A DNA stretch of 64,000 nt from the NCBI GenBank assembly GCA_038209365.1, contig JBBQXS010000017.1, positions 7,111 through 71,110 on the forward strand, in the 5' to 3' direction. The stretch is from Acidimicrobiia bacterium (lineage in GTDB: Bacteria > Actinomycetota > Acidimicrobiia > IMCC26256 > PALSA-610). Shown here piece by piece: positions 1-26,899 of this stretch. Numbering within the stretch: the stretch's first letter is position 1; every line of letters starts with the position of its first letter. The position numbers were made by a program, and so were the translations under genes. The notes beneath the pieces are model-generated. The model was not told where the DNA came from and did not search any database. It saw nothing but the letters and a program-made list of their open reading frames with translations.

Positions 1-722
1 GTTCGGGGAAGACGACGACGTCGGCCGTGCTTGCGCGCCGGCTCGCGCAGCAGGGCGCGCGCGTCGTGGCGCTCGACTGCGATACGAACCCCAACCTCGG
101 GATCTCGCTCGGCGTCGGGGAAGACGAGACCGAACGGCTGGTGGGAATGCGCCAAGCACTCGACGCGGCCGGCAACGCCGATCAGGATGCGCACGCCGCC
201 GACTGGGCCACGCTGCTCGACCGCTTCGGTACCGACGCGCCCGACGGCGTGACGCTCGCGGTCGTGACGCAGATCGACAACCCCGAACCGGGCTGTCCGT
301 GATGCGGTCTCTCTCCCGAGCAGTTGCTCGGGTCCGTTGATCCCGGCGCATCCGTCGTCGTCGCCGATTTCGAAGCCGGTCTGGGGACACTGACCCGCCT
401 CGGTGACGTGCGCGTCGATGTCGTGGTCGTCGTCGTCGAGCCGATGGCGAAGTCCATCGAAGTCGGCACCCGGGCCGCCGCGTACGCGGCGACACACTCG
501 ACCGACCGCGTCGTGGTGTTAGCCAACCGAGTACGCAACGACGACGACCTCGGCGCGATTCAGCGCGCCTTTCCCACGGCCGAGGTCGTGGTGGTCCCCG
601 ACGATCCCACCATCGGTGAGGCCGATCGCCGCGGGGTCGCGCCGCTCGATGTCGCGCCGACGTCGCCGGCCGTCGAAGCGATCAGCGCGCTTGCGTCGAT
701 CGTCGCGCCTCGCGCGCAGTGA
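1..722 (+). CDS. CooC/MinD-family P-loop NTPase (Ni-chaperone-like), 5'-partial, with in-frame TGA at 300-302 (candidate Sec codon, or a split pseudogene)
   Basis: Frame 3 reads SGKTTTSAV (Walker A tail) from the window edge. ORFs 27-302 and 324-722 share one frame and are separated only by the TGA. Both halves align with the paralog at 726-1484 (DxDxNPNLGISLG, ADFEAGLG, VVVEP, ANRV, PDDP). Confidence 0.8.
315..332 (+). promoter_or_regulatory. candidate bacterial SECIS-like hairpin downstream of UGA 300-302
   Basis: cccgagc (315-321) pairs perfectly with gctcggg (326-332), giving a 7-bp stem. The loop is AGUU (contains GU). The stem starts 12 nt after the UGA. Confidence 0.4.
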
Positions 723-725
723 CGC

Positions 726-1484
726 TCAGGTCGGGATCGCGGGGGTGGTCGTGTCGAGGAACTCGATGAGTGCGTCGACTGCCTCGCGCACCGGACCGGC
801 AAGCGTGCCCACGGCCGCACCCGCGCGGTCGGCGTCGGCAACCGCCGGTTCGTAAGGAATGACGCCGCACAACTCGACGCCGTACTCGGCGCACGTGTCG
901 GCGAAGAACGCGACGTCGTCGGGAAGACGCGCCTTGTTGCCCAACCCGTACGTGCGCGGGATCCCGAGCTCGTCGGCGAGGGCTTGGGTCCGCGCCGCGG
1001 TCACGACCGACTTCCGACTCGGTTCCATCACCACGACGAGAATGTCGGCGTGGGCCAGCGTGCCGCCCGATCGGCTCAAATGTTCGAGACCAGCTTCCAT
1101 GTCGACGATGGCAACGTCGGCATGGTCCTCGATAGCCATGCCGAGCAGGCTGCGGACCGCGGCGTGGTGCCCGCACGTGCATCCCGCGCCCGCCTGGTCC
1201 ACACGCATTGCAGACAGGAGGCGCGGGCCGGCCGGTGTCACGCGTCCGTATTCGCGCAGCAATGCGTCGGCGCCGAGCGTGCCCGAGCCCACCGCGAGGT
1301 TGCGCGGAATGACGGGGATCGCTTCGGTCTCGGCCAGCGACAGGCCGAGCGAGATGCCGAGGTTGGGGTTCGAGTCGGTGTCGACGGCGATGACCCGCTG
1401 TCCGGCGGCTTCGAAGCCCCGCGCCACCAGCGCAGCCACGGTGGTCTTCCCAACGCCGCCTTTGCCGACGATCCCCAACTTCAT
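726..1484 (-). CDS. CooC/MinD-family P-loop NTPase with intact CxC metal motif
   Basis: MKLGIVGKGGVGKTT Walker A, DTDSNPNLG, GAGCTCG motif, VDMEAGLEHL. GAGGAGG Shine-Dalgarno lies upstream of the ATG at 1484. Confidence 0.85.
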   Translation of the reverse strand: MKLGIVGKGGVGKTTVAALVARGFEAAGQRVIAVDTDSNPNLGISLGLSLAETEAIPVIPRNLAVGSGTLGADALLREYGRVTPAGPRLLSAMRVDQAGAGCTCGHHAAVRSLLGMAIEDHADVAIVDMEAGLEHLSRSGGTLAHADILVVVMEPSRKSVVTAARTQALADELGIPRTYGLGNKARLPDDVAFFADTCAEYGVELCGVIPYEPAVADADRAGAAVGTLAGPVREAVDALIEFLDTTTPAIPT

Positions 1485-1541
1485 CGTGCTGCCTCCTCGA
1501 TCCTTCCGAGTGTTGCACGCCCAACAAGGCGCCGGTGCCTC

Positions 1542-2330
1542 GTGACGCCGGCACGAATCGCGTTCATCGGCAAGGGCGGCGCCGGGAAGTCGGTGATCGC
1601 GGGCACCTTCGCCCGGCTGCTCGGCCGTCAGGGCACCCCGGTGCTCGCAGTGGACTCGGATCCCATGCCGGGCCTTGGGTTCTCGCTCGGCGTCCCTGGT
1701 GTCGACGCCCCGCTGCCGGACGACGCGCTCGAAGACGACGCGCCCGGTCCCGACGGGCGGCCCCAACCGGCGCGGCTGCGGCTCCCGCCGGTCGAGGCCA
1801 CCGAACGGTACGCGGCCGCGGCTCCTGACGGCGTGCGGTTCTTGCAGTTCGGCAAGTTGCGGGGCCACGTGCGCGAGCTTCAGCGTTCCCAGCAGGTGTT
1901 CCGCCGCATCATCGATGGGATGCGATCGGAGGGCTGGCACGTGATCGGCGACCTTCCGGGCGGCACTCGCCAGCCGTTCTTCGGGTGGGGTGACTTCGCC
2001 GACACTGTCGTCGTGGTGGCCGAGCCGACCGCGGCCTCGCTGCTCACCGCGCGCCGGCTCGCCAACCTCACCCGCTCGGACGCCGCGCCCGCTCGTCTGG
2101 TCGTCGTCGCCAACAAGGTGCGCCGCGCCGCCGAGGTCGATCGGGTGGCGGACCGCAGCGGTCTCGAGGTCGTCGGCGCCGTGCCGGACGACCCCGCGGT
2201 CCGTGCCGCCGACCGCGCGGGCCGGGCACTGCTCGACGTCGGCGCCGACAGCGACGCAGTACGCGCAATCGCCGACCTGGTAGCGCATCTGGTGGAGGCG
2301 CCATCGTCCGCAACCGACCCGGACGACTGA
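1542..2330 (+). CDS. CooC/ParA-like P-loop NTPase lacking the CxC motif
   Basis: GTG start; IAFIGKGGAGKS Walker A, VDSDPMPGLG, VVVAEP, VVVANKV. No Cys at the position of the paralogs' CxC. Confidence 0.75.
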   Translation: MTPARIAFIGKGGAGKSVIAGTFARLLGRQGTPVLAVDSDPMPGLGFSLGVPGVDAPLPDDALEDDAPGPDGRPQPARLRLPPVEATERYAAAAPDGVRFLQFGKLRGHVRELQRSQQVFRRIIDGMRSEGWHVIGDLPGGTRQPFFGWGDFADTVVVVAEPTAASLLTARRLANLTRSDAAPARLVVVANKVRRAAEVDRVADRSGLEVVGAVPDDPAVRAADRAGRALLDVGADSDAVRAIADLVAHLVEAPSSATDPDD

Positions 2331-3119: not shown

Positions 3120-3131
3120 TTCGAGGAGCAC

Positions 3132-4451
3132 ATGGCAACGCGTCCCGCCCGGTCCCCGGCCGCGGATCTTCTCGACCTGCTCGGGCCGGTCGACAAATTC
3201 CACGACCACGACGTGCTCGGCGACTTCGGCATGCCGACGCGCGCGTCGATGGAGCAGATGCTTGCGCCGGTCGCGACCGTCGGGGCGCACTCCAAGATCG
3301 GCCCGCTCGAGAAAGTCCACGCGTTCTGGCTCGCGGGCATGAGTTGTGACGGCTGTTCGGTCGCGGTGACCGGCGCCCAGGCGCCGTCGGTCGAGAGCCT
3401 CGTGCTCGGCGCGCACCCGGGCCTCCCGCAAGTGATCCTGCATCACCCGGTGTTGAACGTGGAGTCGGGCCCGGCGTACATGCGCGCCCACGAGATGGCG
3501 TTCGCGGGTGAGCTCGATGCGCCGTACGTCGTGATCTTGGAAGGATCGGTCGCCGACGAGACGATCGCCGCGCGGGCCGGCGGCTACTGGTCGGGCCAGG
3601 GCGAAGAGCCATGGGGACTCGGCGGCGAACTGCGGACGGTCTCGACCGCCGAGTGGATCGCGCGCCTCGCGCCGGGGGCCGCCGCCATGCTCGCCATCGG
3701 CACGTGCGCGACGTGGGGAGGCATCCCGGCCGCCGAAGGAAACCCGACCGGCGCGATGAGCATGATGGACTTCTTGGGCAAGGACTACCGCAGCGCGCTC
3801 GGTGTGCCGGTGATCAACGTGCCGGGGTGTCCGCCGATCGGTGACAACTTCACCGAGACCGTCGCGGCGGTCCTGTACTTCCTGCAAGGTTTTGGTCCGT
3901 TGCCCGAGTTCGACGAACTTGGTCGGCCGGCATGGCTGTTCGGCGAGACCGTGCACCGCCATTGTGTGCGCGGCGCGTACTACGAAGAAGGCACCTACGC
4001 CAAGGAGTTCGGCGACCCCGAGTGCCTCGTGGAGATCGGTTGCTGGGGCCCGGTCGTCAACTGCAACATCACCTCGCGCGGGATGATCAACCACGTCGGC
4101 GGCTGCATGAACTCCGGCGGCGCGTGCATCGGCTGCACGATGCCGGGGTTCCCCGACAAGTTCACGCCGTTTTACAAGCGGCCCCCGGGCTCGGCCGTCT
4201 CCACCGCCGCCAGCCGGCTCATCGGCAGCATGATCCGGCCGCTGCGGAAGGTCACGAACTCGCACCTTAATCGGGAGGTGCGCTGGGACCATGAAGACGA
4301 GGTGCCCACCGGCTGGGCCACCGAGAACTCCGGACCCACCCTCACGGCCAACGTCGCCCACAAGTTCTACGACCGGCTCCGCCGATCGAACGACCACGCC
4401 AAGGGTCGGGGCGGCGAGTTCGGCAAGACCTCGACCCCGCGAAAGAGCTGA
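3132..4451 (+). CDS. [NiFe]-hydrogenase small subunit, no twin-arginine signal
   Basis: FeS ligand motifs GMSCDGCS, GTCATWGG, PGCPP, HRHCVRG, CWGPVVNCN, GGCMNSGGACIGC. GAGGAG SD. No RRxFxK motif in the N-terminus. Confidence 0.93.
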   Translation: MATRPARSPAADLLDLLGPVDKFHDHDVLGDFGMPTRASMEQMLAPVATVGAHSKIGPLEKVHAFWLAGMSCDGCSVAVTGAQAPSVESLVLGAHPGLPQVILHHPVLNVESGPAYMRAHEMAFAGELDAPYVVILEGSVADETIAARAGGYWSGQGEEPWGLGGELRTVSTAEWIARLAPGAAAMLAIGTCATWGGIPAAEGNPTGAMSMMDFLGKDYRSALGVPVINVPGCPPIGDNFTETVAAVLYFLQGFGPLPEFDELGRPAWLFGETVHRHCVRGAYYEEGTYAKEFGDPECLVEIGCWGPVVNCNITSRGMINHVGGCMNSGGACIGCTMPGFPDKFTPFYKRPPGSAVSTAASRLIGSMIRPLRKVTNSHLNREVRWDHEDEVPTGWATENSGPTLTANVAHKFYDRLRRSNDHAKGRGGEFGKTSTPRKS

Positions 4452-4457
4452 CGCGCC

Positions 4458-6359
4458 ATGTGCTTCAAGAACTTGCCCATCGAGTTCGACGACGACGGCC
4501 GGGCGCGCCTCAAGGAAGGCATCCCCGACCCGTACTCGATGATCAGCTCGCGTCCGCGCGTCGACATCACCGACGTCGAACGCGAAGAGCAGATCAAGCG
4601 GCTCATGGCCCGCAACGGTCACATCAAAGACATCAACATGGACCCGGTCACCCGCGTCGCGGGCGCGCTCGCGGTGCACATCACCGCCGACCTCGAAAAG
4701 GGCGAGCACCTCGACGCGCGCGCCCAGGCAACGCTGTTCCGCGGCTACGAGGTGATCCTGATGGGTCGCGACCCGCGCGACGCCATCTTCATCTCGTCGC
4801 GCGCGTGCGGGGTGTGCGGCGGTGTGCACAGCCACTGCTCCGCGTACGCGATCGAGATGGCGATGGGGTTGGCCCCGCCGCCGATGGGGACCGTTGTGCG
4901 GAACCTGGCCGAGGCCGCCGAGATGGGCTACGACAACCCGTTGCACCTCTACTTGTTGGCGGGCCCCGACTACTCCGAATCGGTCGTACGTGCGGTCAAT
5001 CCCGAGTTGTGGCCCAAGGCCGAGAAGTGGCTGTGTCCCGGCGCGGCGCACCACGGGTTCCGCACGATGGCCGATCTGATGACCGCGCTCAACCCGCTCA
5101 CCGGCGACCTGTACCGCGAGGGTCTCGACTTCACGCGGCTGTCGCGGGAGATGTTCGTCGTTCTCTACGGCAAGTATCCGCACCCCCAGGGCGTCGTGCC
5201 CGGCGGCGTGTCGAGCACGGTGACGCTGCAGACGCTGAACGAGTACCACTCCAAGCTCGGACGCATCTTCGACTACGCGCAGCGGATGCTCGCGGTGTGG
5301 AACGACATCCCCGAGTTCTTCTACGAGTGCGACGACCGCTACCGCCGCATTGGCGCGCGCCCAATGAACCTCGTCGACACCGGCTTCTGGGACGACCCGT
5401 ACGCGTACGACGCGACGTACGCGAACTGCGACGAGTGGGGGCAGCGCCGGTGGTCGACGCCGGGCGTCGTGATCGACGGCGAGCTCGTCACCTCGCGGCT
5501 GACCGACATCAACGTGGGGTGGGAAGAGTTCGTCGACCACTCCTACTACGACGAGTGGGACGGCAGCCGCTACCGCACCGACGACCTCGGCAACCCGCTC
5601 AGCCCGTACCACCCGTGGAACAAGCAGACGCTGCCCCGACCCGGCGGCAAGAACTGGAAAGAGAAGTACACGTGGGCGTGCACGCCGCGCTGGGACCGCC
5701 AGGTGGTGGAAGCGGGCGCATACGCGCGGCTGTTCACGACCGCCATGGCACAGAAGCTGCCGGCCAATCCCTTCATCGAAGCGACCGGGTCCAGTCTGCG
5801 CATGTTGGTGCCGAAAGGCCTCACCGGCGAAGCGGAAGTCGAGTGGCACGTGCCAGAGTCGTGGAACGCGCTCGAGCGCAACCGAGGCCGCGCCTTCCAC
5901 TATCTCTTCTCACAGCTCGTCGGTCTCAACACGTTATTGCAGGCCTACGACCTGATGAAGCAAGGCGAGACGCGCGTCGCGGCCGTGACCGCCGACGAGC
6001 TCGACCGCCACATTCCCAAAGACGAAGTGCGCAGCGTCGGATGGTGGGGCGCGGGCCGGGGCTATCTCACCCACCACATGGTGATGGAGAAAGGCCGCAT
6101 CGCGAACTACCAGATCTGCACGCCCTCGACGATCAACGCGTCACCACGCGACCCGTTCGACCAACCCGGCCCGTACGAAGAAGCCGTCATGAACACGCCG
6201 ATCCTCGAGGAGTTCGACGATCCCGGGCGATTCACGTCGATCGACATGCTGCGCGCGATCCGCAGCTTCGACCCGTGCATGCCGTGCACCACCCACGTCG
6301 ACACGGGCGACGGCACGGTCGTGCGCGAGGTGAACACCTGCTCGTGCGGCGCTGACTGA
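4458..6359 (+). CDS. [NiFe]-hydrogenase large subunit
   Basis: RGYE-x15-SRACGVCGGVH (L1) and FDPCMPCTTH (L2) give four Ni-ligand Cys. NASPRD is present. A 20-aa C-terminal tail follows the His. Confidence 0.95.
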   Translation: MCFKNLPIEFDDDGRARLKEGIPDPYSMISSRPRVDITDVEREEQIKRLMARNGHIKDINMDPVTRVAGALAVHITADLEKGEHLDARAQATLFRGYEVILMGRDPRDAIFISSRACGVCGGVHSHCSAYAIEMAMGLAPPPMGTVVRNLAEAAEMGYDNPLHLYLLAGPDYSESVVRAVNPELWPKAEKWLCPGAAHHGFRTMADLMTALNPLTGDLYREGLDFTRLSREMFVVLYGKYPHPQGVVPGGVSSTVTLQTLNEYHSKLGRIFDYAQRMLAVWNDIPEFFYECDDRYRRIGARPMNLVDTGFWDDPYAYDATYANCDEWGQRRWSTPGVVIDGELVTSRLTDINVGWEEFVDHSYYDEWDGSRYRTDDLGNPLSPYHPWNKQTLPRPGGKNWKEKYTWACTPRWDRQVVEAGAYARLFTTAMAQKLPANPFIEATGSSLRMLVPKGLTGEAEVEWHVPESWNALERNRGRAFHYLFSQLVGLNTLLQAYDLMKQGETRVAAVTADELDRHIPKDEVRSVGWWGAGRGYLTHHMVMEKGRIANYQICTPSTINASPRDPFDQPGPYEEAVMNTPILEEFDDPGRFTSIDMLRAIRSFDPCMPCTTHVDTGDGTVVREVNTCSCGAD

Positions 6360-7122: not shown

Positions 7123-7867
7123 CGTCGTAACCGGAGAGGTCAGGCGGCTGGTCGATGTCGCCAACGGCCGGCTCGAGGATGCCGAGATGTTGCGGCCGAA
7201 TCGCGACGCGGCTTCCGCGTGCCGTCGTCACGACGAGCGCGCCGTCAGCCAAGCACGCGCTCGCCTCCCCCTCGGTCATCGGGCCACCCGGTCCGAGCGG
7301 AATGAGCCGAGCCCGCACCCGCTGTCCCAACGTCGTGCACCGCGCGGTGACGGTGGCGAGCACTGTGTCGGGATCCTGAGCGAGGCGGGCCTCGATCGCG
7401 TCGGCGGCGCGGGCGAGCAGTGGACCGCGCGGCGGTTCGACGCCGCGCAGCCACACGTTGATCACCGCCCAGGTCAATCCGTCGGGACCGAGCTCCGACT
7501 CGACGCCGACGGCCCCGGCCAGTTCACCGTCGCGCCAGACCTCGTCGGGCCAGTGCACCTCGCCACCGGCGAGCGCGTCCGCCACGCCGGCCACCGCGAC
7601 CAGATAGAGCCATCCCTCGCGCTCGGCGGGCAACGGCGGATGCACGACGAGCGAGAAGCCCACGTCGCGCTCGGGGACGAGCGCCCACGGCCAGCCGGCC
7701 CGCCCTCTCGGCGACGCCTGGTAGCCGGCCACGACCACTGCACCATCGGGGGCGCCCGCCCGCGCCCACGCCTGGGCGTCAGCGGCCGTCGAGAGGAGCG
7801 CCGGGTAGACCCGAGCCGGCCGCTCCGCCAACCACTGCGCCAACGCCTCGGGCGAGAGATCGTTCAT
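7079..7867 (-). CDS. biotin/lipoate protein ligase (BPL_LplA_LipB)-like protein
   Basis: BirA-catalytic-domain-like layout (QASPRGRAGWPW, HWPDEVW, GAVGVE). Its ATG overlaps the stop of the upstream TPR gene (ATGA). Confidence 0.5.
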   Translation of the reverse strand: MNDLSPEALAQWLAERPARVYPALLSTAADAQAWARAGAPDGAVVVAGYQASPRGRAGWPWALVPERDVGFSLVVHPPLPAEREGWLYLVAVAGVADALAGGEVHWPDEVWRDGELAGAVGVESELGPDGLTWAVINVWLRGVEPPRGPLLARAADAIEARLAQDPDTVLATVTARCTTLGQRVRARLIPLGPGGPMTEGEASACLADGALVVTTARGSRVAIRPQHLGILEPAVGDIDQPPDLSGYDVTPTRPPPTDQAPR

Positions 7868-11366: not shown

Positions 11367-11716
11367 TGCGCATCGTCGACAGCACCGTTCTGCCGAGAGC
11401 CCATCTGCGCGTGGTGCTGCTTTTGCTCTTGCGCGCCGGCTCCTCCCATGGCTACGACCTCCTCGAAGAGACGCGTCGTCTCGGGATGCGCACCGCGGAA
11501 GCAGCCGGTGTGTATCGCACGCTGCGCGCGCTCGAGCTCGACAACTGCGTGACGTCGTGGTGGGAACCGTCGCAGTCGGGGCCGGCGCGCCGCACGTACG
11601 CGATCACGCCCGCAGGTGAGTTCGCATTGGCGGAAGGGATACAAGAGCTCGACGGGCTGCGGCGGTCGCTCAACCGGCTGCTCGCCCGCTATCGCGACAT
11701 GGACCGGGACGGGTGA
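11366..11716 (+). CDS. PadR-family transcriptional regulator
   Basis: LLLLLRAGSSHGYDLLEE...GVYRTLRALELDNCVTSWWE...RRTYAITPAGE is the typical PadR wHTH. TAATG overlap with the upstream gene. Confidence 0.85.
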   Translation: MRIVDSTVLPRAHLRVVLLLLLRAGSSHGYDLLEETRRLGMRTAEAAGVYRTLRALELDNCVTSWWEPSQSGPARRTYAITPAGEFALAEGIQELDGLRRSLNRLLARYRDMDRDG

Positions 11717-12471
11717 GGGTTGCCGTCGCCGGGAAGGGCGGCGCCGGCAAGACAACGATCGCGGCAACGGCAGCGCGTTTGGGTGCTCGCTCCGGTCGTC
11801 CGGTTGTCGCCGTCGACGCCGATAGCAACCCGAACCTCGCGGTCGCGCTCGGTGCCGGCGCGCCCGGGGTTGCGGTTGTGACGCCGAGTCTTCCGCCGTC
11901 GCTCGTGTCACGGCGCCTCGACCGGACGGGCTTCGTGTGTCCGCTCGACGCGGTGCTCGCGGAGTACGCGATCTCCGCGCCCGACGGGGTGCGGTTGGTT
12001 GCGATGGGCGCGCCGGGCCACGCCGAGGAGGGATGCCTGTGCTCCGCCCATGCGGTGGTGAGCACGCTGCTCGCGGCGCTCGGCGAGCGACCCGACACGC
12101 TCACGGTCGTCGATATGGAAGCGTCGCCCGAGCACTTGAGTCGAGGCACCGCCCGTCACGCCGACGTGCTGCTGCTTGTCGCCGAGCCCTACTACCGCGC
12201 GCTCGAAGCGGTCGGTCGGCTGGCCGACCTCGCCCGCGAACTTCCGATCGCGCGCGTGGCGGTGGTCGCGAACAAGGTTCGTTCCGAAGACGACGACGCG
12301 GCAATCTCCGCCTATTGCGATCGACACGGGTTGGAACACGTCGCCACCATTGCGTGGAGCGAGGATGCGATGGCCGCCGATCGTGCCGGTCGGAGCGTGC
12401 TCGACACTGCGCCAGACGGCGCCCTGGTGCGCTCGGTCGACGAACTGCTCACGTGCATCGCGGGCCGCTGA
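11713..12471 (+). CDS. CooC/MinD-family P-loop NTPase with CxC motif
   Basis: VAVAGKGGAGKTT, VDADSNPNL, EEGCLCSAH, VDMEASPEHL, VVANKV. GTGA overlap with padR. Confidence 0.85.
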   Translation: MRVAVAGKGGAGKTTIAATAARLGARSGRPVVAVDADSNPNLAVALGAGAPGVAVVTPSLPPSLVSRRLDRTGFVCPLDAVLAEYAISAPDGVRLVAMGAPGHAEEGCLCSAHAVVSTLLAALGERPDTLTVVDMEASPEHLSRGTARHADVLLLVAEPYYRALEAVGRLADLARELPIARVAVVANKVRSEDDDAAISAYCDRHGLEHVATIAWSEDAMAADRAGRSVLDTAPDGALVRSVDELLTCIAGR

Positions 12472-12472
12472 C

Positions 12473-12745
12473 ATGTGCCTCGGCATCCCCGGCCAGATCG
12501 TCGAGATCATCGACCCGGCCCTGCACCGCGCCGTGCTCGATGTCGAAGGCGTACGCCGGGAAGTGAACATCGGCCTGCTCGTCGACGACACCGACCCGGT
12601 CGCGGTGGGCGATTGGGTGCTCGTGCACGTGGGGTTCGCGATGGCGAAGATCGACGCCGACGAGGCCGCCCGTACCCTCGCCTTCGTGCGCGAGCTCGAG
12701 GAGTTCATCGACGAGATCGATCTCATGGATGGCGGAACTGCGTGA
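12473..12745 (+). CDS. hypC: hydrogenase maturation chaperone HypC/HupF
   Basis: MCLGIPGQIVEI N-terminus and VGDWVLVHVGFAM core. Confidence 0.92.
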   Translation: MCLGIPGQIVEIIDPALHRAVLDVEGVRREVNIGLLVDDTDPVAVGDWVLVHVGFAMAKIDADEAARTLAFVRELEEFIDEIDLMDGGTA

Positions 12746-13890
12746 GGTTCGTCGACGAGTACCGCGATCCGGTCGCGGCACGCGCGACATTGGCCGAGAT
12801 CGAGCGACTCGCCGCTGAGCAGCCGGCGCGCGCGTTCATGGAAGTGTGCGGAGGGCACACCCACACCATCTACCGCCACGGCATCGAACATCTCCTGCCG
12901 GCGTCGGTCGAGCTGGTGCACGGTCCCGGGTGCCCGGTCTGTGTGATCCCGATGGGCCGCATCGACGACGCCATCGCAGTTGCCCACCAGCCTGGCGTGA
13001 TCTTCACCTGCTTCGGCGACATGCTGCGCGTGCCCGGCTCCAACGGGAGCCTTCTGCGCGCAAAGGCGAAGGGTGCCGACGTCCGGGTCGTGTACTCGCC
13101 GCTCGACGCGCTTCGCCTGGCCGGTGAACATCCGGATCGGCCGGTGGTTTTCTTCGCGGTCGGGTTCGAGACCACCGCCCCGTCGACCGCGCTGACGCTT
13201 CGTCGCGCGCGCGAATTAGGGACGCATAACTTCTCCGTCTTCTGCAACCACGTCACGATCGTCCCGCCGCTGAAGGCGATCCTCGACTCCCCCGACCTCC
13301 GACTCGACGGCTTCCTCGGGCCCGGACACGTGTCGACGGTCATCGGCAACCGGCCGTATCGGTTCGTGCCCGAGCGGTACGGCAAGCCGCTGGTGACGAC
13401 CGGTTTCGAGCCCCTCGACATCCTCCAGGCGATCGTGATGCTCCTGTGCCAGCTGCGTGACGGGCGGTGCGAGGTCGAGAACCAATACACGCGGGTGGTG
13501 CGGGACGAAGGAAACCCGCGCGCGCTCGAGGTCATCAGGGAGGTCTTCGAGCTGCGACCCCATTTCGAGTGGCGCGGCTTGGGCTTCATCAGCCAGAGCG
13601 CGTTGAAGCTCCGCGCCGAGTTCGCGCCCTGGGACGCGGAGGTCGCGTTCGACGTCCCCGGTGTGCGCGTCGCGGACCCCAAGGCGTGTCAGTGCGGCGA
13701 GGTCTTGAAGGGCGTGCTCAAGCCATGGCAGTGCAAGGTGTTCGGAACCGCCTGTACGCCGGAAACGCCGATCGGCACGTGCATGGTCTCCTCCGAAGGT
13801 GCATGCGCGGCGTACTACAACTTCGGTCGTCGCATCCCGACTCGTTCGACCCGCGTCGGTGTCGCACGCTCGGCCATCGCTGACCGTTAA
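12742..13890 (+). CDS. hypD: hydrogenase maturation protein HypD
   Basis: CGGHTH, GPGCPVCV, FETTAP, GPGHVS, PxHVSxxxG-type blocks and C-terminal ...SSEGACAAYY. GTGA overlap with hypC. Confidence 0.95.
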   Translation: MRFVDEYRDPVAARATLAEIERLAAEQPARAFMEVCGGHTHTIYRHGIEHLLPASVELVHGPGCPVCVIPMGRIDDAIAVAHQPGVIFTCFGDMLRVPGSNGSLLRAKAKGADVRVVYSPLDALRLAGEHPDRPVVFFAVGFETTAPSTALTLRRARELGTHNFSVFCNHVTIVPPLKAILDSPDLRLDGFLGPGHVSTVIGNRPYRFVPERYGKPLVTTGFEPLDILQAIVMLLCQLRDGRCEVENQYTRVVRDEGNPRALEVIREVFELRPHFEWRGLGFISQSALKLRAEFAPWDAEVAFDVPGVRVADPKACQCGEVLKGVLKPWQCKVFGTACTPETPIGTCMVSSEGACAAYYNFGRRIPTRSTRVGVARSAIADR

Positions 13891-14642: not shown

Positions 14643-15288
14643 AGGAACGGACTTTCTGTATCCCTTCATCGACGGTGACGAGCGCGATGCCGCACCGCTC
14701 CTCGCGGATCTCGCGGCGTCAGCGCGCGTCAAGTCGGCCGAGAGCAGGCGTACCCGTACGCGCGACATCGAGGGCAACGAGGAGACGCTGGCCGCGGCCG
14801 CACGGGCGATGGCCGACCGCTTCGTAGCGAACGGCCGACTGTTCACCTTCGGCGACGGCGGCAGCTCCACCGACGCTGCGCTGCTCGCAAACCTGTTCGC
14901 CGATCCCATCTCCGGGCCGTCGCTGCCCGCGCGTTGCCTCGTGGAGGACCCCGCAGTGATCACCGCACTCGGCAACGACGTCGGCTTCGAGCTCGTGTTC
15001 TCGCGGCAGCTCATCGCGCACGGACACGCCGGCGACATTGCGCTGGGCTTTTCCACGAGCGGCAACTCCCCCAACCTGTTGCACGCGTTCGCCGAAGCGC
15101 GCGGGCGCGGAATGCTCACAATCGGATTGAGCGGCTACGACGGCGGGGGGATGCGCGAAGCTCTCGACCACTGTCTGATCGTCGGTTCCGACAGTGTGCA
15201 CCGGATCCAGGAGACCCAGGCCGCGATCGGCCTCGCACTGTGGAAGCGCGTGCAATCCCTGCTGCCTTCGGCGGCGCGTGATGGCTGA
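14635..15288 (+). CDS. SIS-domain (GmhA/phosphoheptose-isomerase-like) protein
   Basis: FGDGGSSTDAA, ALGNDVGFELVFSRQL, GDIALGFSTSGNSPN, IGLSGYDGG. 8-nt overlaps with both neighbours. Confidence 0.8.
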   Translation: MAEGTDFLYPFIDGDERDAAPLLADLAASARVKSAESRRTRTRDIEGNEETLAAAARAMADRFVANGRLFTFGDGGSSTDAALLANLFADPISGPSLPARCLVEDPAVITALGNDVGFELVFSRQLIAHGHAGDIALGFSTSGNSPNLLHAFAEARGRGMLTIGLSGYDGGGMREALDHCLIVGSDSVHRIQETQAAIGLALWKRVQSLLPSAARDG

Positions 15289-16378
15289 GTCGACCGGCGC
15301 GTCACGCGATCGCGAATCCGCGGTGCTCGACCGGATCGAATCGTTTCGGCGGCGCCGCCCCCGCTTGACCGACGACGTCGTCACGCTTGCCCACGGCGCC
15401 GGCGGCAAGGCCTCCGCGGCGCTCGTCGACGCAGTGTTCCTCGACGCGTTCGCGCCGGCTGACCGCGGTCCACTCGCCGATGCCGCGTCGCTCACGCTGC
15501 CGACCGGAGAACGGCTCGCGTTCACGACCGACTCGTTCGTGGTCCAGCCCCGCCGCTTCCCCGGCGGTTCGATCGGCGACCTCGCGGTCAATGGCACGGT
15601 GAACGACCTCGCTGTGAGTGGCGCAATTCCACAATGGTTGTCGGCGGCGTTCGTGATCGAGGAAGGCTTCCCGGTCGCCGAGTTGCGTGAGCTCGTCGCG
15701 GACATGGCGCGCGCGGCCGCGGCTGCGCGCATCGAGATCGTGACCGGCGACACGAAGGTCGTCGGCAAGGGCGCGGCCGATGGTCTGTACATCACGACGA
15801 CCGGCGTGGGCGTGATTCCCGCCGGACGCGCGCTCGGACCGGAACGGGTCGAAGCGGGTGACGTGGTGCTTGTCTCGGGCACGATCGCGGATCACGGCAT
15901 GGCGGTGATGCTGGCGCGCGGTGACCTCGCGCTCGAGGCCGACATTCGTTCGGACACTGCACCGCTGGGCGCGCTCGTGGAGTCGTTGCTTGCAGCCGCG
16001 CCGTCGACGCGCTGGATGCGGGACCCGACGCGAGGCGGGGTGGGCACCGTGTGCAACGAGCTCGCGCGCGATGTCGATCTCGCGGTCGTGCTCGACGAGA
16101 GTGCATTGCCGATCTTGCCGCAAGTCGCAGGCGCGTGTGATCTACTCGGCATCGACCCGCTCTACGTCGCCAACGAAGGAAAACTGCTCGCGATCGTGGC
16201 GGTCGACGAAGCTGAGGCCGCGCTCGCCGCGCTGCGAGCGAACTCCGCCGGCCGCGACGCGACGCGCGTCGGCGAGATCGCACCAGAACCGGAAGGCATC
16301 GTCGTGCTCCGCACCACATTTGGCGGCACGCGCATCGTCGACATGCTCGTCGGTGATCCGCTGCCGCGCATCTGCTGA
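15281..16378 (+). CDS. hypE: hydrogenase maturation protein HypE
   Basis: AIR-synthase-like fold motifs (HGAGG, GDLAVNGTVNDLAVSGA, TGDTKV) and the C-terminal PRIC. Confidence 0.95.
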   Translation: MAESTGASRDRESAVLDRIESFRRRRPRLTDDVVTLAHGAGGKASAALVDAVFLDAFAPADRGPLADAASLTLPTGERLAFTTDSFVVQPRRFPGGSIGDLAVNGTVNDLAVSGAIPQWLSAAFVIEEGFPVAELRELVADMARAAAAARIEIVTGDTKVVGKGAADGLYITTTGVGVIPAGRALGPERVEAGDVVLVSGTIADHGMAVMLARGDLALEADIRSDTAPLGALVESLLAAAPSTRWMRDPTRGGVGTVCNELARDVDLAVVLDESALPILPQVAGACDLLGIDPLYVANEGKLLAIVAVDEAEAALAALRANSAGRDATRVGEIAPEPEGIVVLRTTFGGTRIVDMLVGDPLPRIC

Positions 16379-16383
16379 TACAC

Positions 16384-18675
16384 ATGGCCCGAACTCGAAT
16401 GCGCGTCACGGGAACCGTCCAGGGAGTCGGCTTCCGGCCGTTCGTGCATCGACACGCGGTCGAACTCGGTCTCGTCGGGTTCGTCCGCAACGACTCGCAG
16501 GGCGTGTTGATCGAGGTCGAAGGCGAGCCCGACCTCATCGCCGAGCTCGCTCGCCTGCTCGTCGACGAACCGCCGCCGCTCGCGCGCGTCGGCAACGTCG
16601 CCGCCACCGCGGTCGCGTCGAAGCCGACGGACTCGGGATTCCGTATCGTCGACAGCGTCGAACGCGACGCGCCGTCGGTTCCAGTGAGCGTCGACACCGC
16701 CACCTGCGACGAGTGCCTGTTCGAGGTAAACGACCCCGCCGACCGACGTCGCGGCTATGCATTCACGAACTGCACGAACTGCGGGCCGCGTTACACGATC
16801 GTGTTGTCGGTCCCGTATGACCGCGAGTTCACGACGATGGCGGGTTTCGCGATGTGCTCGGCATGTCAGGCCGAATACGACGACCCGACGAACCGCCGGT
16901 TTCACGCCCAGCCCAATGCCTGCGCCGATTGCGGGCCCCAGCTCGAATGGCGCTTGCCGGGCGGCGCGCGCGTTGCCGTACGCGACGAAGCGCTCGCGGC
17001 GGCAGTCAACGCGCTGCGCGACGGGAAGGTGGTCGCGGTCAAGGGCGTAGGTGGATACCACCTTGCGGTCGACGCTACCAACGCGACCGCGGTCGCAATC
17101 CTGCGACGACGAAAGGCCCGCGATGACAAGCCGTTCGCGCTGATGGTTCGTGATCTCGAGGTGGCACAACGTCTCGTCGTGCTCGACGACGTCGCGATCG
17201 GCGCGCTGACGTCGATTCAGCGACCGATTGTCGTTGCGCCACGCGTCAAGAGCGCGCCGGTCGCCGAAGCGGCGGCGCCGGGCCTGCCTGATCTCGGCGT
17301 GATGCTGCCGTACACGCCGCTCCATCACTTGTTGCTCGCAGGTGTCGGGCGCCCGCTGTTGATGACGAGTGGCAACCTCAGCGACGAGCCGATCGCGCAC
17401 GACGATGCCGATGCCTTCGCACGGTTGGGCCCGCTCGTCGACGCCTTCCTCACTCACGACCGCCCGATCCACATTCGTTGCGACGACTCCGTCGCGCGCT
17501 CGACTCGCGGTCGCGTCCAGATGTTGCGCCGGTCGCGCGGCTACGCGCCCGAACCGTTGTCGCTTCCAACGCCTGCGCGCAGGGCCGTACTCGCGGTCGG
17601 TGCCGAGCTCAAAAGCACGATCGCCGTCGCCAAGGAGCGGATCGTCGTCGCGAGCCATCACCTCGGCGATCTCGAACACCTGCCGACGTTCCGGTCGTTC
17701 CTCCAGGCGCTCGATCATCTCCGTCACCTGTACGGCGTGGTGCCGGACGTCGTTGCCCACGACCTGCACCCGGAGTACCTGTCGACGAAGCTCGCGTTGG
17801 AGCTCGACCTCCCGACGCGCGGCGTGCAACATCACCACGCGCACGTCGCGTCATGCCTCGTCGAGCACGGCCGCACCGCGCCCGTGCTCGGGCTTGCCTT
17901 CGACGGCATGGGCTACGGCAGCGACGGGACGATGTGGGGTGGCGAGTTTCTCGTTGCCGACCTCGACGGGTTCACGCGCGTCGCCCACGTCCGCCCGGTC
18001 ACGATGCCCGGCGGTGTCGCCACGATCCGGGAGCCCTGGCGCATGGGGCTCACCTGGGCGACGCAGGCAGGCGTGGCGGACGCAGCTCGCACGATCTTCG
18101 CCGACGTCGACGCCCGCAGCCGAGAAGCAGTAGGCGACCTCATCGCGCGCGCCGCGGGTCCGGTCACGACGAGCATGGGCCGCCTGTTCGACGCCGTCGC
18201 GGCATTGCTCGGAGGCCGACGCCGCGTGAGTTACGAAGGGCAGGCCGCGATCGAGCTCGAGGCCCTCGCTCGAACCGTGGCCCGGCGCGACGCGCCTGTG
18301 TACGACGGGCTGTGCCTCAACGGGGATGCTGGCGGTGTCGGCATCATCGACCCGTCACCGCTGGTGGCGGCGTTGCTCGAGGAACGGCTTCGCGGCATCG
18401 CGACGCCGTTGCTGGCAGCCGGTTTCCATGAAGGGCTCGGACGCGCCGCCGCCGTGCTCGCGACGCGGCTCGCGCGCAAACATGGTCTCGATACCGTCGT
18501 GTTGACGGGTGGCGTGTTCCAGAACGTTCGGTTCACCGAGGTCGTCGAGTCCGCGCTTGTTCAAGAGGGTCTGCACGTGCTCGTGCACCAACACGTACCA
18601 CCCAACGACGGCGGGATCAGCATCGGTCAAGCCGCGATAGCGGCGCGTCTCGGTGCCGAAAGCGAGACGGTGTGA
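16384..18675 (+). CDS. hypF: carbamoyltransferase HypF
   Basis: Acylphosphatase domain (VTGTVQGVGFRPFV), two CxxC-x18-CxxC zinc fingers, YrdC-like and Kae1-like domains, and C-terminal NDGGISIGQA. Confidence 0.95.
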   Translation: MARTRMRVTGTVQGVGFRPFVHRHAVELGLVGFVRNDSQGVLIEVEGEPDLIAELARLLVDEPPPLARVGNVAATAVASKPTDSGFRIVDSVERDAPSVPVSVDTATCDECLFEVNDPADRRRGYAFTNCTNCGPRYTIVLSVPYDREFTTMAGFAMCSACQAEYDDPTNRRFHAQPNACADCGPQLEWRLPGGARVAVRDEALAAAVNALRDGKVVAVKGVGGYHLAVDATNATAVAILRRRKARDDKPFALMVRDLEVAQRLVVLDDVAIGALTSIQRPIVVAPRVKSAPVAEAAAPGLPDLGVMLPYTPLHHLLLAGVGRPLLMTSGNLSDEPIAHDDADAFARLGPLVDAFLTHDRPIHIRCDDSVARSTRGRVQMLRRSRGYAPEPLSLPTPARRAVLAVGAELKSTIAVAKERIVVASHHLGDLEHLPTFRSFLQALDHLRHLYGVVPDVVAHDLHPEYLSTKLALELDLPTRGVQHHHAHVASCLVEHGRTAPVLGLAFDGMGYGSDGTMWGGEFLVADLDGFTRVAHVRPVTMPGGVATIREPWRMGLTWATQAGVADAARTIFADVDARSREAVGDLIARAAGPVTTSMGRLFDAVAALLGGRRRVSYEGQAAIELEALARTVARRDAPVYDGLCLNGDAGGVGIIDPSPLVAALLEERLRGIATPLLAAGFHEGLGRAAAVLATRLARKHGLDTVVLTGGVFQNVRFTEVVESALVQEGLHVLVHQHVPPNDGGISIGQAAIAARLGAESETV

Positions 18676-24334: not shown

Positions 24335-25243
24335 TTGGAAGGTCCCGACGTGAGCGAGCCTACGCGCGCTTCGCCGCGCACAACACTCGAGCGCGCGTCC
24401 GGCGAGATCGCGACGGCGATCGGGATGTCGGCGTCGCTGTCGGATCAGACGCGACCGCGCTTTGTCGCGACGGCGGATCGGTTCTTCTCGTTCTGTGGGC
24501 GCGGCTTCGGCTTGCGGTCGCTCGACGAGGTCACAGCCGAGATTGCTCGTGCATTTCTGGAGGCGCCGCTCCAGGATCGGGAGCCGAGCGTTGCGACGAT
24601 GCATCTGCGTCGTGCCGTGCTGAAGTTCTTGTTCCGTCAGGCACGTGAGCTCGGCCTCGTCAATCACGACCCGTGTGTAGATCTCGGGCTGCCGCCCCGT
24701 TCGAGTTTGGCGGCTCGTCCGCTTACCGATGACGAGATCGCACTCTGTCGCAGCTACTCGCTGACATCGCTCACGAATACCCGAATGCCGGCGGCGTGGG
24801 CGCTCGCAGAGGCGACGGCGCGCACAGCCGAGATCCCCCACGTCCGCGTTCGGGACGTCGATCTCAACAAGGGTCGGGTGTGGTTGCACGGAAGCCCGCG
24901 CACCATCGAGCGCTGGGGTCCGCTCACGCGGTGGGGCGAGGTGCAGCTCGAACGGCGCGTGGCCGCACTCGGCGGCATCGACGCGTCCCTCGTGTACGCG
25001 GCGAACGGTTCGGCTGCGAGCGGCCAGGCGGTGGCGTGCATCGCGGTGACTCACACGTTGGTTCGTGCGGGCCTCGGCAGTGAGCCCGACATCCGGCCTA
25101 TCTCGGTCGCGGCGTGGGCGGGCCGATCGCTGCTCGACGAGACGGGGCGGATCGATGCGGTCGCGCGGCTCCTCGGTGTACGCAGTCTTGATCGTGCGGC
25201 GCGAATTGTCGCGTGGGACCGGTCCCAGGCCGAGGACGAGTAG
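24335..25243 (+). CDS. tyrosine-recombinase-like protein lacking recognisable box II catalytic residues
   Basis: SAM-like N-domain plus box I-like ATARTAEIPHVRVRDVDL. Where HxLRH...LGH...Y is expected, the sequence is ISVAAWAG...LGVRSLDRAARIVAWD. Start is TTG 24335 or GTG 24350. Confidence 0.5.
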   Translation: MEGPDVSEPTRASPRTTLERASGEIATAIGMSASLSDQTRPRFVATADRFFSFCGRGFGLRSLDEVTAEIARAFLEAPLQDREPSVATMHLRRAVLKFLFRQARELGLVNHDPCVDLGLPPRSSLAARPLTDDEIALCRSYSLTSLTNTRMPAAWALAEATARTAEIPHVRVRDVDLNKGRVWLHGSPRTIERWGPLTRWGEVQLERRVAALGGIDASLVYAANGSAASGQAVACIAVTHTLVRAGLGSEPDIRPISVAAWAGRSLLDETGRIDAVARLLGVRSLDRAARIVAWDRSQAEDE

Positions 25244-25249
25244 CCATCG

Positions 25250-26823: not shown

Positions 26824-26899
26824 GCCCTCGTAGCTCAGGGGATAGAGCATCGGTTTCCTAAACCGTGTGTCGCAGGTTCGAATCCTGCCGAGGGCGCCA
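26824..26899 (+). tRNA. tRNA-Arg (anticodon CCT)
   Basis: Cloverleaf read by hand. Acceptor GCCCTCG/CGAGGGC, D arm GCTC..GAGC, anticodon loop TTCCTAA, T arm GCAGG-TTCGAAT-CCTGC, discriminator G and encoded CCA. Confidence 0.9.

Follow-up and report, generated by a model that had tools for sequence, protein, structure and literature searches.

Does the in-frame TGA at positions 300-302 of the DNA studied here terminate a gene, or might it encode selenocysteine (Sec)? The window, i.e. the whole 64-kb stretch that was analysed, opens inside a gene for a CooC/MinD-type P-loop ATPase. A first-pass annotation had proposed that two open reading frames, 27-302 and 324-722, share one frame, are parted only by this TGA and together give one full-length ATPase. 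Translation confirmed the common frame: between base 3 and the stop codon TGA 720-722, frame 3 is interrupted only by the codon in question. The proposal of a single gene stands, with the correction that the 5' end of this gene is cut off by the window edge. About 10 codons are missing, and with them M-K-x-A-V-V-G-K-G-G of the deviant Walker A motif; of the GKGGSGKTT carried by orthologs, only S-G-K-T-T of the P-loop is seen in the window. Since these are the first readable residues, the gene start must be upstream of the window, and "ORF 27-302" is merely mechanical. The N-terminal part ends with N-P-E-P-G-C-P before the TGA, and the C-terminal part opens with C-G-L-S-P-E-Q-L-L-G and holds the D-x-E-A-G switch II/Walker B region, so that the metal motif reads G-C-P-TGA-C-G. 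The annotation had also placed the TGA at the second Cys of a CxC motif on the basis of two paralogs, and the G-C-T-C-G and G-C-L-C-S motifs of these paralogs were both found as described. This placement is correct with respect to CooC1, with whose second Cys the TGA aligns, but the true orthologs (24 full-length sequences of 243-248 aa were aligned) read G-C-P-C-C-G in the Cys type, and the TGA takes the middle Cys of a three-Cys motif. As a separate observation, a 1.5-kb Logan contig (SRR19962011) is identical to positions 314-1859 of the window and ends 12 nt short of the TGA; look-ups of the exact proteins gave no record for the hydrogenase large subunit or the C-terminal ORF.

Table. Location of the ATPase gene, its proposed recoding elements and the neighbouring genes in the window.
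Feature	Position	Strand	Basis
CooC/MinD-type ATPase gene, whole readable part	3-722	+	frame 3 open but for TGA 300-302
N-terminal part of the ATPase	1-299 (frame 3 from base 3)	+	translation; Pfam; ortholog alignment
In-frame TGA, proposed selenocysteine codon	300-302	+	TGC/TGT in orthologs
C-terminal part of the same gene	303-722	+	translation; divergence as in Cys-type orthologs
SECIS-like hairpin CCCGAGC-AGUU-GCUCGGG	315-332	+	MFE fold; RNAalifold consensus; covariation
Convergent CooC-type paralog, intact G-C-T-C-G (CxC)	726-1484	-	translation; Pfam
MinD-like paralog without Cys motif	1560-2330	+	translation; Pfam
Group 1h/5-type [NiFe]-hydrogenase small subunit	3120-4451	+	Pfam NiFe_hyd_SSU_C, Oxidored_q6
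Group 1h/5-type [NiFe]-hydrogenase large subunit	4458-6359	+	Pfam NiFeSe_Hases; best PDB match 5aa5 HofG, E 2.7e-142
Fourth MinD/CooC-type paralog, G-C-L-C-S, just before hyp genes	11713-12471	+	translation; Pfam
HypC-family match	within 12140-12745		Pfam
HypD	12475-13890		Pfam
HypE	15179-16378		Pfam
HypF	16384-18675		Pfam

Several lines of evidence bear on the question. First, the TGA is a recurrent feature of an ortholog family. The pattern P-G-C-P-TGA-C-G-x-S-x-E was observed at 49 loci in 185,579 species-representative genomes, the window's own genome not being among them, against a chance expectation of less than about one (information-content estimate). All 49 loci are true orthologs, whose downstream half reaches a normal stop in 44 cases and the contig end in five, and they come from many orders of Actinomycetota and from two Chloroflexota. 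Carriers of TGA forms include Pseudonocardia nigra DSM 104088 (NZ_JAHKRK01) and the contigs CAWBWS010000002.1 (1.7 Mb) and JAUJOY010000002.1. When the pattern was relaxed to TGH and applied to metagenomes, its first 120 matches comprised 89 TGA forms and 30 real Cys forms. The same TGA is therefore present in 138 sequences besides the window (49 species genomes and 89 metagenome contigs), and orthologs alternate between TGC/TGT and TGA at exactly codon 300-302. The downstream half is open in every TGA form found, and its conservation is not relaxed: amino-acid divergence of the C-half relative to the N-half gives a ratio of 1.35 for the Sec forms and 1.37 for the Cys forms, and the C-half divergence at the three codon positions is.30/.26/.55 and.32/.26/.54, respectively, so that the two forms are equally constrained and share a pattern dominated by third-position substitutions. 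The earlier impression that neither half had decayed is consistent with these results. Moreover, the first five codons past the TGA (+1 to +5) differ between sequences by synonymous changes (TGC/TGT for Cys, all four GGN codons for Gly and TCN/AGC for Ser), indicating that they are translated in the ATPase frame. On a UPGMA tree, the Sec and Cys forms are intermingled, and Fitch parsimony puts the number of switches between them at about 41 or more, an approximate count given this method. One TGT form (L139) is 94.9% identical in nucleotides to a TGA form (L055) and still keeps the hairpin described below. At another locus, L048, the ortholog of the 726-1484 paralog has a TGA of its own, at the first Cys of CxC.

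Second, a hairpin follows the TGA. The perfect hairpin with the loop AGUU that had been reported 12 nt after the UGA is indeed present: cccgagc (315-321) pairs with gctcggg (326-332) without mismatch, giving a 7-bp stem and a 4-nt loop that contains G-U, after a spacer of 12 nt (303-314). Taken alone, the window hairpin is unremarkable for DNA of 68% G+C (z = -1.59 compared with shuffles), and its significance arises only at the level of the family. The family signature TGA-N14-YGAGCAGTTGCTCR has one match in the window (300-330), exact and unique, with none expected. Among the hairpin codons of 117 unique TGA forms, GAG is found in 117, CAG in 117, TTG in 116 and CTC in 110, and the loop is AGUU in 116, whereas the 27 Cys forms show GAG in 20 and GAA in 7, together with CTG in 18, ATG in 4 and TTG in 2; for the TTG codon, the difference between the two forms (116/117 vs 2/27) gives a Fisher p of 1.4e-24. 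Part of the stem (GAGC/GCUC) is dictated by the conserved peptide E-Q-L-L. The MFE of the hairpin is -10.8 kcal/mol in the TGA forms compared with -5.0 in the Cys forms. Furthermore, 96.3% of the hairpin cells are paired in the TGA forms, with CG/GC/UG/UA exchanges, and the covariation score of 0.139 (0.092 in shuffles) was reached by none of 500 shuffles, whereas the Cys forms are 72% paired, the same as shuffles, and show no covariation excess. These results show nucleotide-level selection with compensatory changes on the hairpin, in the TGA forms only. The RNAalifold consensus of 81 TGA forms consists of the apical hairpin alone; an extended lower stem, formed by long-range pairing in the MFE fold of the window, is not conserved and was rejected. 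No Rfam family matched the hairpin at the gathering score, and a permissive scan of positions 270-380 gave noise only.

Third, two orthologous loci, L030 and L048, each have a tRNA-Sec gene at a distance of approximately 1-2 kb from the TGA gene. Both match Rfam RF01852 above the gathering score (65.7 and 69.0 bits vs 47) and have a UCA anticodon and a discriminator G followed by an encoded CCA. A G discriminator is of the SerRS/tRNA-Sec type, and U73 is typical of tRNA-Cys. Neither selA, selB and selD nor tRNA-Sec was found within the 64-kb window, motifs of SelA, SelB and SelD were absent from the window and from all of 170 loci, and the 120 metagenome loci contained no tRNA genes at all. 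The selenoprotein reading of the first-pass annotation is thus supported by the Cys/TGA alternation, the constrained downstream half, the hairpin selection specific to TGA forms and the tRNA-Sec genes near two loci. For the family, comparison of the sequences strongly supports Sec; for the window itself, positions 3-722 very probably represent one CooC/MinD-type P-loop ATPase, full-length but for the window edge, with UGA 300-302 read as selenocysteine. The hairpin would then be a bacterial SECIS and might, following the model of E. coli fdhF, bring SelB-GTP-Sec-tRNA(Sec) to a ribosome that has paused at the UGA.

What might such a protein do? The window ATPase matches CbiA (PF01656) and AAA_31 in Pfam, and its best PDB sequence match is CooC1 (3kje, E 9.4e-9). 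In the HMMER alignment, C-P-[TGA] stands opposite C112-Y-C114 of CooC1. The structure predicted by AF2 for a Cys ortholog (pLDDT 90.8) matches MinD, FlhG, CooC1 and NifH; for CooC1, the query-normalised TM-score of 0.74 is among the highest of the matches listed and the identity of 25% is the highest listed. Sequence matches and predicted model together show a CooC-like fold. With regard to the gene neighbourhood, a homolog of the 1560-2330 paralog lies directly upstream of the Sec/Cys gene on the same strand in 122 of 123 loci, and a paralog of the 726-1484 type is convergent downstream in 71 loci. The conserved neighbours comprise two or three more MinD/CooC paralogs, NifU-like and TPR proteins, HypC/D/E/F and the group-1h [NiFe]-hydrogenase. 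When the main ORFs of the window were scanned with Pfam, and motifs were searched for in a crude way, no HypA or HypB came to light, and no CO dehydrogenase (CODH) was found in the scanned window ORFs or among the genes tested in related loci. TGA 4449-4451 was considered as a second recoded codon and rejected, being the stop of the small-subunit gene; the large subunit starts at ATG 4458 in the same frame.

The conserved neighbours, together with the undetected HypA/HypB, suggest that the ATPase might act in the assembly of the metal centre of a high-affinity, O2-tolerant hydrogenase. The [NiFe]-hydrogenase at 3120-6359 is presumed, from homology and neighbourhood, to be the client of the maturation module, and on the same grounds the metal is most likely nickel. 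By homology to CooC1, the motif would lie at an ATP-dependent dimer interface and bind a transition metal there, with a selenolate replacing one thiolate metal ligand. The window gene would belong to a widespread, unannotated Sec/Cys family with the metal motif C-P-(U/C)-C.

Four other explanations were weighed. The most durable accepts Sec and questions the nickel: the protein might be an Fe-S carrier or scaffold resembling Mrp/NBP35, or a redox protein of the C-x-x-C/C-x-U kind. Mrp/NBP35 ATPases have a CPxC motif after switch II that holds a bridging [4Fe-4S] cluster, and the spelling C-P-U-C fits this CPxC; in addition, a NifU-like gene recurs in the neighbourhood, the orthologs give weak Pfam matches to ParA/NUBPL (PF10609, only at the N-terminal P-loop) and NifH, and the hydrogenase small subunit needs three Fe-S clusters. 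However, the C-P-(U/C) motif precedes switch II, as it does in CooC, CooC1 heads the PDB sequence matches and ranks with the best structural ones, and the paralogs of the module carry a plain CxC. An Fe-S or redox role is considered unlikely.

The UGA might also be recoded to an amino acid other than Sec, either to Cys through a SelC-like tRNA(Cys) and a SelB-like factor or to Trp or Cys through near-cognate read-through stimulated by the hairpin. Cys occupies the position in many orthologs, switching is frequent, and for some bacteria it has been proposed that SelC-like tRNAs carry Cys. Nevertheless, both neighbouring tRNAs exceed the Rfam threshold for tRNA-Sec and carry the G discriminator instead of U73, and the hairpin geometry fits a SelB-type SECIS, making recoding to another residue improbable. 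Still less probable is a split gene, in which translation really ends at the UGA and starts anew at TTG 324 for the C-terminal half, the two polypeptides assemble and the conserved nucleotides are a restart or coupling signal rather than a SECIS. TTG is a legal start codon that is nearly invariant in the TGA forms, and gene callers, including that of RefSeq, annotate two ORFs; however, the seven codons from TGA to TTG (C-G-[LIV]-S-[PA]-E-Q) encode conserved residues through varying synonymous codons, no Shine-Dalgarno-like sequence precedes the TTG, the covarying outer stem pairs (CG/GC, UG/UA) are left unexplained by a start signal, and tRNA-Sec adjoins the gene in two loci. A restart at TTG 324 was rejected on account of the protein-level constraint on codons +1 to +5. 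Finally, a pseudogene, nonsense mutation or sequencing error, i.e. a copy killed by a TGC-to-TGA change whose hairpin is a by-product of the E-Q-L-L codons, could appeal to the closest protein-database matches, which are all full-length Cys forms, to the weak z-score of the window hairpin and to the presence of four paralogs, one of which could be dispensable, but it is effectively refuted at family level by the shared TGA across many orders with downstream halves constrained like those of Cys forms, and it is scarcely credible for the window, which has the TTG codon specific to TGA forms and the full hairpin and is closest to another TGA form, L080 (80.6% identity).

With Sec as the preferred reading of the UGA, the family is, apparently, undescribed so far. 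In RefSeq and IMG, the gene is annotated as two pieces, a 105-aa "AAA family ATPase / CO dehydrogenase maturation factor" and a hypothetical protein of approximately 130 aa, the N-terminal fragments being named "CO dehydrogenase maturation factor" in IMG, and this systematic splitting makes the Sec forms invisible to protein-level surveys. No CooC/MinD ATPase is included among the 119 selenoprotein families of the 2026 prokaryotic inventory (PMC13188914). The initial remark that no Sec-containing CooC had been described agrees with the selenoprotein inventories consulted, including this one, and literature searches on Sec with CooC, CO dehydrogenase maturation factor, metallochaperone/nickel or group 1h returned nothing relevant. 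Herein, with somewhat more confidence than doubt, we propose a new, environmentally abundant family that would represent the first Sec-containing metallochaperone of the MinD/CooC class, with Sec as a metal ligand in the maturation of the group-1h [NiFe]-hydrogenase. As part of the same proposal, the second paralog at locus L048 would have gained Sec independently, at the other Cys of CxC.

The family is common in desert-soil Actinomycetota, beside genes for atmospheric-H2-oxidising hydrogenase. If the proposal is true, atmospheric H2 oxidation would be partly selenium-dependent in many desert and Antarctic soil Actinomycetota and in some Chloroflexota, and a link would exist between selenium and maturation of the group-1h hydrogenase, which scavenges atmospheric H2 in dry soils. 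The prokaryotic selenoproteome would also gain a family from a class without a known Sec member, the MinD/CooC ATPases, in aerobic, high-G+C soil Actinomycetota, whose selenoproteomes are thought to be small. Moreover, an uncharacterised set of three to four CooC/MinD ATPases may replace HypA/HypB. The frequent Sec/Cys switching and the simple, highly conserved SECIS might provide a clean natural test system for the contribution of Sec at a metal-transfer site and for the rules of SelB-SECIS recognition in Actinomycetota.

Several known systems can be compared with this family. CooC1 of Carboxydothermus hydrogenoformans (PDB 3kje/3kjg/3kjh/3kji), the ATP-dependent Ni-insertion factor of Ni,Fe-CO dehydrogenase, shares the MinD/SIMIBI fold and the deviant Walker A motif. 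In contrast to CooC1, the family has Sec or Cys as the second motif residue plus an extra Cys (C-P-U/C-C), comes in a module of three to four paralogs and lies without CODH nearby, in a group-1h [NiFe]-hydrogenase/hyp cluster of aerobic Actinomycetota. In Thermococcus kodakarensis, a HypB of the Mrp/MinD family, i.e. a MinD-type ATPase, replaces the GTPase HypB in Ni delivery to [NiFe]-hydrogenase, which provides a precedent for the window cluster with its undetected HypA and HypB. This archaeal protein was not among the PDB sequence matches at E <= 0.01, and it is not known to have a CxC or Sec motif. The SECIS of E. coli fdhF is a SelB-binding hairpin just 3' of the UGA, with an essential G-U in its apical loop. 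Like the fdhF element, the window hairpin is short, lies within the coding sequence and has its stem 11-12 nt after the UGA; it differs in its perfect 7-bp stem, in its 4-nt AGUU loop, in being without the bulged U and in doubling as codons for the conserved P-E-Q-L-L-G.

Two selenoprotein groups are related in kind. The CobW-related selenoprotein (NCBIfam NF041053, UxxC) is a G3E/COG0523 GTPase, from another NTPase family than the MinD/CooC ATPases. It is likewise a metallochaperone-related P-loop NTPase with Sec in a Cys-rich metal motif, and among the listed selenoproteins we judge it the closest in kind to the window ATPase (PMC13188914), which would have Sec at a different motif position and occurs in different organisms; NCBIfam and Pfam scans gave no NF041053 or cobW-domain match to the window ATPase. 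The [NiFeSe] hydrogenases also combine selenium with Ni chemistry and hydrogenase, with Sec, a Ni ligand of the large subunit, in place of a metal-ligating Cys, and are exclusive to sulfate reducers and methanogens (PMC13188914). In the present family, by contrast, the carriers are aerobic soil Actinomycetota, the large subunit in the window ends D-P-C-M-P-C-T-T-H, all Cys, and Sec would sit in the accessory ATPase instead.

In the present study, the TGA at window positions 300-302 is predicted, with high confidence, to be a genuine SECIS-directed recoding site, and the CooC/MinD-type ATPase gene containing it to be a selenocysteine (Sec)-form family member. The first-pass annotation had proposed a Sec codon here; its observation was confirmed, and its interpretation is supported by family-level evidence. 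First, in translation, forward-strand frame 3 reads from base 3 down to a stop at 720-722 with this TGA as the sole interruption. The single broken frame stood, but ORF 27-302 is purely mechanical; the true gene start lies upstream of the window, since the first translated residues (S-G-K-T-T-T) are already the end of the P-loop. The read-through product matched Pfam CbiA (PF01656) and AAA_31, indicating a MinD/ParA/CooC-type ATPase, and an NCBIfam scan gave only sub-threshold MinD/BcsQ/ParA matches and no selenoprotein model. The closest solved structure by sequence is CooC1, the Ni-insertion ATPase of Carboxydothermus hydrogenoformans (3kje, E 9.4e-9), and HMMER places C-P-TGA of the query opposite its C112-Y-C114. 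The AF2 model of a Cys ortholog (P0001; pLDDT 90.8) has the MinD/FlhG/CooC1/NifH fold, with the C-P-C-C motif predicted in the loop directly preceding helix 112-118; of the matches listed, none exceeds CooC1 in identity (25%), and its query-normalised TM-score (0.74) is among the top values.

Second, a protein search returned over 490 relatives. The 120 best are full-length (225-290 aa, mostly 241-258), come from MAGs of Acidimicrobiia and other Actinomycetota, and carry CPCC in 117 cases; the top relatives are 77% identical to the window product. P-G-C-P-C-C-G-L-S-P-E-Q-L-L is present in 24/24 aligned orthologs, and the TGA therefore stands for the middle Cys of C-P-C-C. Because gene callers split TGA forms, so that protein databases cannot show them, DNA was scanned with the pattern CCN GGN TGY CCN TGA TGY GGN NTN WSN NCN GAR. 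Among 185,579 species-representative genomes, 49 loci matched, where our information-content estimate predicts well under one by chance. All are true orthologs, with a conserved N-terminal half and the TGA in frame; in 44 of them the downstream half reads on for 134-148 codons before reaching an ordinary stop codon, and the contig end comes first in five. They include Acidimicrobiales, Mycobacteriales, Pseudonocardiaceae (among them the isolate Pseudonocardia nigra DSM 104088), Geodermatophilaceae, Nocardioidaceae, Propionibacteriales, Sporichthyaceae, Thermoleophilaceae and two Chloroflexota. In metagenomes, the corresponding TGH pattern matched at least 120 loci, the 120 listed comprising 89 TGA, 22 TGC and 9 TGT, with one false match. 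Orthologs thus alternate between Cys and TGA at this codon, a pairing previously noticed between paralogs. A UPGMA tree built from 107 Sec (TGA) and 136 Cys (TGC or TGT) forms shows the two thoroughly interleaved, requiring about 41 state changes by parsimony; such interleaving is typical of selenoprotein families. The nearest relative of the window among the matches listed, L080 at 80.6% identity, also carries TGA.

Third, the hairpin was found as first described, CCCGAGC (315-321) pairing with GCUCGGG (326-332) around an AGUU loop 12 nt from the UGA. By itself it is unremarkable for DNA of 68% G+C (z = -1.59). Among 117 unique TGA forms, its codons are GAG for Glu (117), CAG for Gln (117), TTG for the first Leu (116) and CTC for the second (110), whereas 27 unique Cys forms have GAG 20 and GAA 7; CAG 19 and others 8; CTG 18, ATG 4, CTC 2, TTG 2 and CTA 1; and CTC 18 and others 9, respectively. 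The TTG supplies the G-U of the loop, and its association with TGA gives a Fisher p of 1.4e-24. All of these counts treat the sequences as independent although they are related; flanking synonymous sites, however, show saturation in the same set. The folding energy of the 18-nt segment is -10.8 kcal/mol for TGA forms versus -5.0 kcal/mol for Cys forms. Across 81 TGA forms, pairing holds in 96.3% of stem cells, and both the covariation score (0.139 versus 0.092 shuffled) and the double-sided stem changes (13 versus 3.8) exceed 500/500 shuffles; for instance, the outermost pair switches from CG to GC, and the third varies among CG, UG, UA and GC. In Cys forms, pairing falls to 72% of cells and every pairing and covariation measure equals the shuffles. 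RNAalifold independently predicted this hairpin alone. These comparisons indicate that the hairpin is selected only where the codon is TGA. The two Cys forms retaining TTG look like recent conversions; one of them, the TGT metagenome contig L139, keeps an intact AGUU hairpin and is 94.9% identical in nucleotides across the gene to a TGA contig (L055), which appears to reflect a recent Sec/Cys switch. Separately, a public read-set assembly contig (Logan SRR19962011_822539), 100% identical to window 314-1859, breaks off right at the base of the stem, 12 nt before it would reach the TGA.

Fourth, conservation continues past the TGA. The C-half/N-half ratio of mean pairwise amino-acid divergence is 1.35 in 110 Sec forms versus 1.37 in 18 Cys forms, and C-half nucleotide divergence by codon position is 0.30/0.26/0.55 in Sec forms (106 after dereplication) versus 0.32/0.26/0.54 in Cys forms, so that the signature of purifying selection is the same in both. 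Changes in the five codons that follow the TGA are mostly synonymous (Cys TGC/TGT, four Gly codons, Ser TCN and AGC; the others are Ile/Leu/Val and Pro/Ala); this stretch is therefore translated in frame, which rules out re-initiation at the conserved TTG (window 324).

The main gap in the case is the Sec-decoding capacity of the window's own organism, as no sel genes or tRNA-Sec lie within the 64-kb window. In two genomes with orthologous loci, an Acidimicrobiales MAG (L030) and a different, Actinomycetota MAG (L048, 1.7-Mb contig), ARAGORN placed a tRNA-SeC (UCA anticodon) at a distance of 1-2 kb from the Sec-CooC gene; Rfam confirmed the two at 65.7 and 69.0 bits, above the gathering score of 47. 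Both tRNAs have a G discriminator base, which is of the Ser/Sec rather than the Cys type, followed by an encoded CCA; selA, selB or selD do not adjoin either. Within Actinobacteria, the Sec trait has been documented for Propionibacterineae and Frankineae (PMC5029168).

Features of the window and of related loci
Feature	Location	Strand	Remarks
[NiFe]-hydrogenase small subunit	window 3120-4451		group-1h/5-type
[NiFe]-hydrogenase large subunit	window 4458-6359		group-1h/5-type
Integrase-like region and ORF	window 24335-26662		integrase match at 24335-25243
tRNA-Arg (CCT)	window 26824-26899		just downstream of the ORF
Tandem array	window 57714-59631	+	~150-bp units, 12.8 copies, ~70% matches; frame as read, coding strand may differ
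Sec-form gene	P. nigra (L004) NZ_JAHKRK010000058.1, ~150-885		two proteins in RefSeq
tRNA-Sec	L030 2892-2987	+	ARAGORN, Rfam RF01852; divergent to Sec-CooC gene
tRNA-Sec	L048 3808-3903	-	ARAGORN, Rfam RF01852; divergent to Sec-CooC gene
Paralog with own TGA	L048 6720-7487	-	TGA 7167-7169; ortholog of window 726-1484

Regarding function, the protein would be an ATP-dependent metallochaperone, with Cys and Sec as ligands for Ni (or a different metal) where the two subunits of a dimer meet. The O2-tolerant high-affinity hydrogenase would be its likely client. We give a putative role as a Ni chaperone for hydrogenase slightly better than an even chance; the main functional rival is an Fe-S carrier, the motif being taken as CPxC. 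Among PDB entries, the large subunit best matches the Ralstonia "actinobacterial-type" HofG (5aa5, E 2.7e-142) and ends in the all-Cys D-P-C-M-P-C-T-T-H, and is therefore not a [NiFeSe] enzyme. TGA 4449-4451, considered as a second in-frame TGA, is the small-subunit stop; the large-subunit ATG follows in the same frame, and a stop-to-stop ORF listing makes the adjacent genes mimic an interrupted one. The cluster also encodes NifU-like, TPR, PadR, HypC, HypD, HypC-like, SIS, HypE and HypF proteins and a fourth CooC paralog; neither HypA nor HypB was detected in the 64-kb window when its main ORFs were scanned with Pfam and a rough search for motifs was made. The group-1h hydrogenase and hypC/D/E/F are accompanied by four MinD/CooC-type paralogs (C-P-U-C, C-T-C, no Cys motif and C-L-C; window 1-2330 and 11713-12471), which may serve hydrogenases of this class as an alternative route for delivering Ni or Fe-S. 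In related loci, a Cys-less MinD-like paralog lies directly upstream of the Sec/Cys gene on the same strand (122/123), a CxC paralog is convergent downstream (71 loci), and NifU, TPR, HypD/E/F and HhyS/L recur. The L048 genome, which carries the C-P-U-C gene and the nearby tRNA-Sec, also has a paralog whose own TGA replaces the first Cys of CxC (Q-A-G-A-G-TGA-T-C-S-S-H-A-A-V-R-S), with a conserved downstream half and a 7-bp hairpin (AUGCUGC-CGUGC-GCAGCAU) beginning 13 nt past the UGA; this is a possible second Sec-CooC family (UxC), seen in one example. Elsewhere in the window, a weak match to a phage-integrase N-terminal SAM-like domain (E ~1e-3) is followed, after a TAG and in frame, by a 472-codon ORF without Pfam match; together with the tRNA-Arg, this may be an integrated element adjoining the hyp cluster. 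The tandem array, which had no Pfam match, would in the + frame encode repeats of P-T-A-K-Q-L-V-x-L-V-H-D-T-P-D-S…D-G-F-G-L-A-T-I-V-Q-L-V-P-F-H-R-S-T that run on past an in-frame TGA (59492-59494); another frame or strand may be the coding one, or the array may be a pseudogene.

Existing databases systematically mis-annotate Sec-form genes by splitting them. RefSeq divides the P. nigra gene into WP_219415758.1 (105 aa, "nucleotide-binding protein / AAA family ATPase") and WP_219415759.1 (130 aa, "hypothetical protein"), and IMG and Logan gene calls do likewise in dozens of metagenomes, with IMG labelling the N-terminal pieces "CO dehydrogenase maturation factor". The first-pass annotation knew of no described Sec-containing CooC, and the literature surveyed agrees: a 2026 inventory (PMC13188914, Table 1) of 119 prokaryotic selenoprotein families contains no CooC, MinD, ParA, PF01656 or P-loop ATPase, the sole exception being a cation-transporting P-type ATPase, and the texts of deep-Sep, BSepDB, Peng 2016 and Zhang 2006 mention no CooC/MinD-type selenoprotein. 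This is a predicted selenoprotein family undescribed in the literature surveyed, which uses the standard bacterial Sec-recoding mechanism, and among the inventoried families we judge the CobW-related selenoprotein (NF041053) to be nearest in kind.
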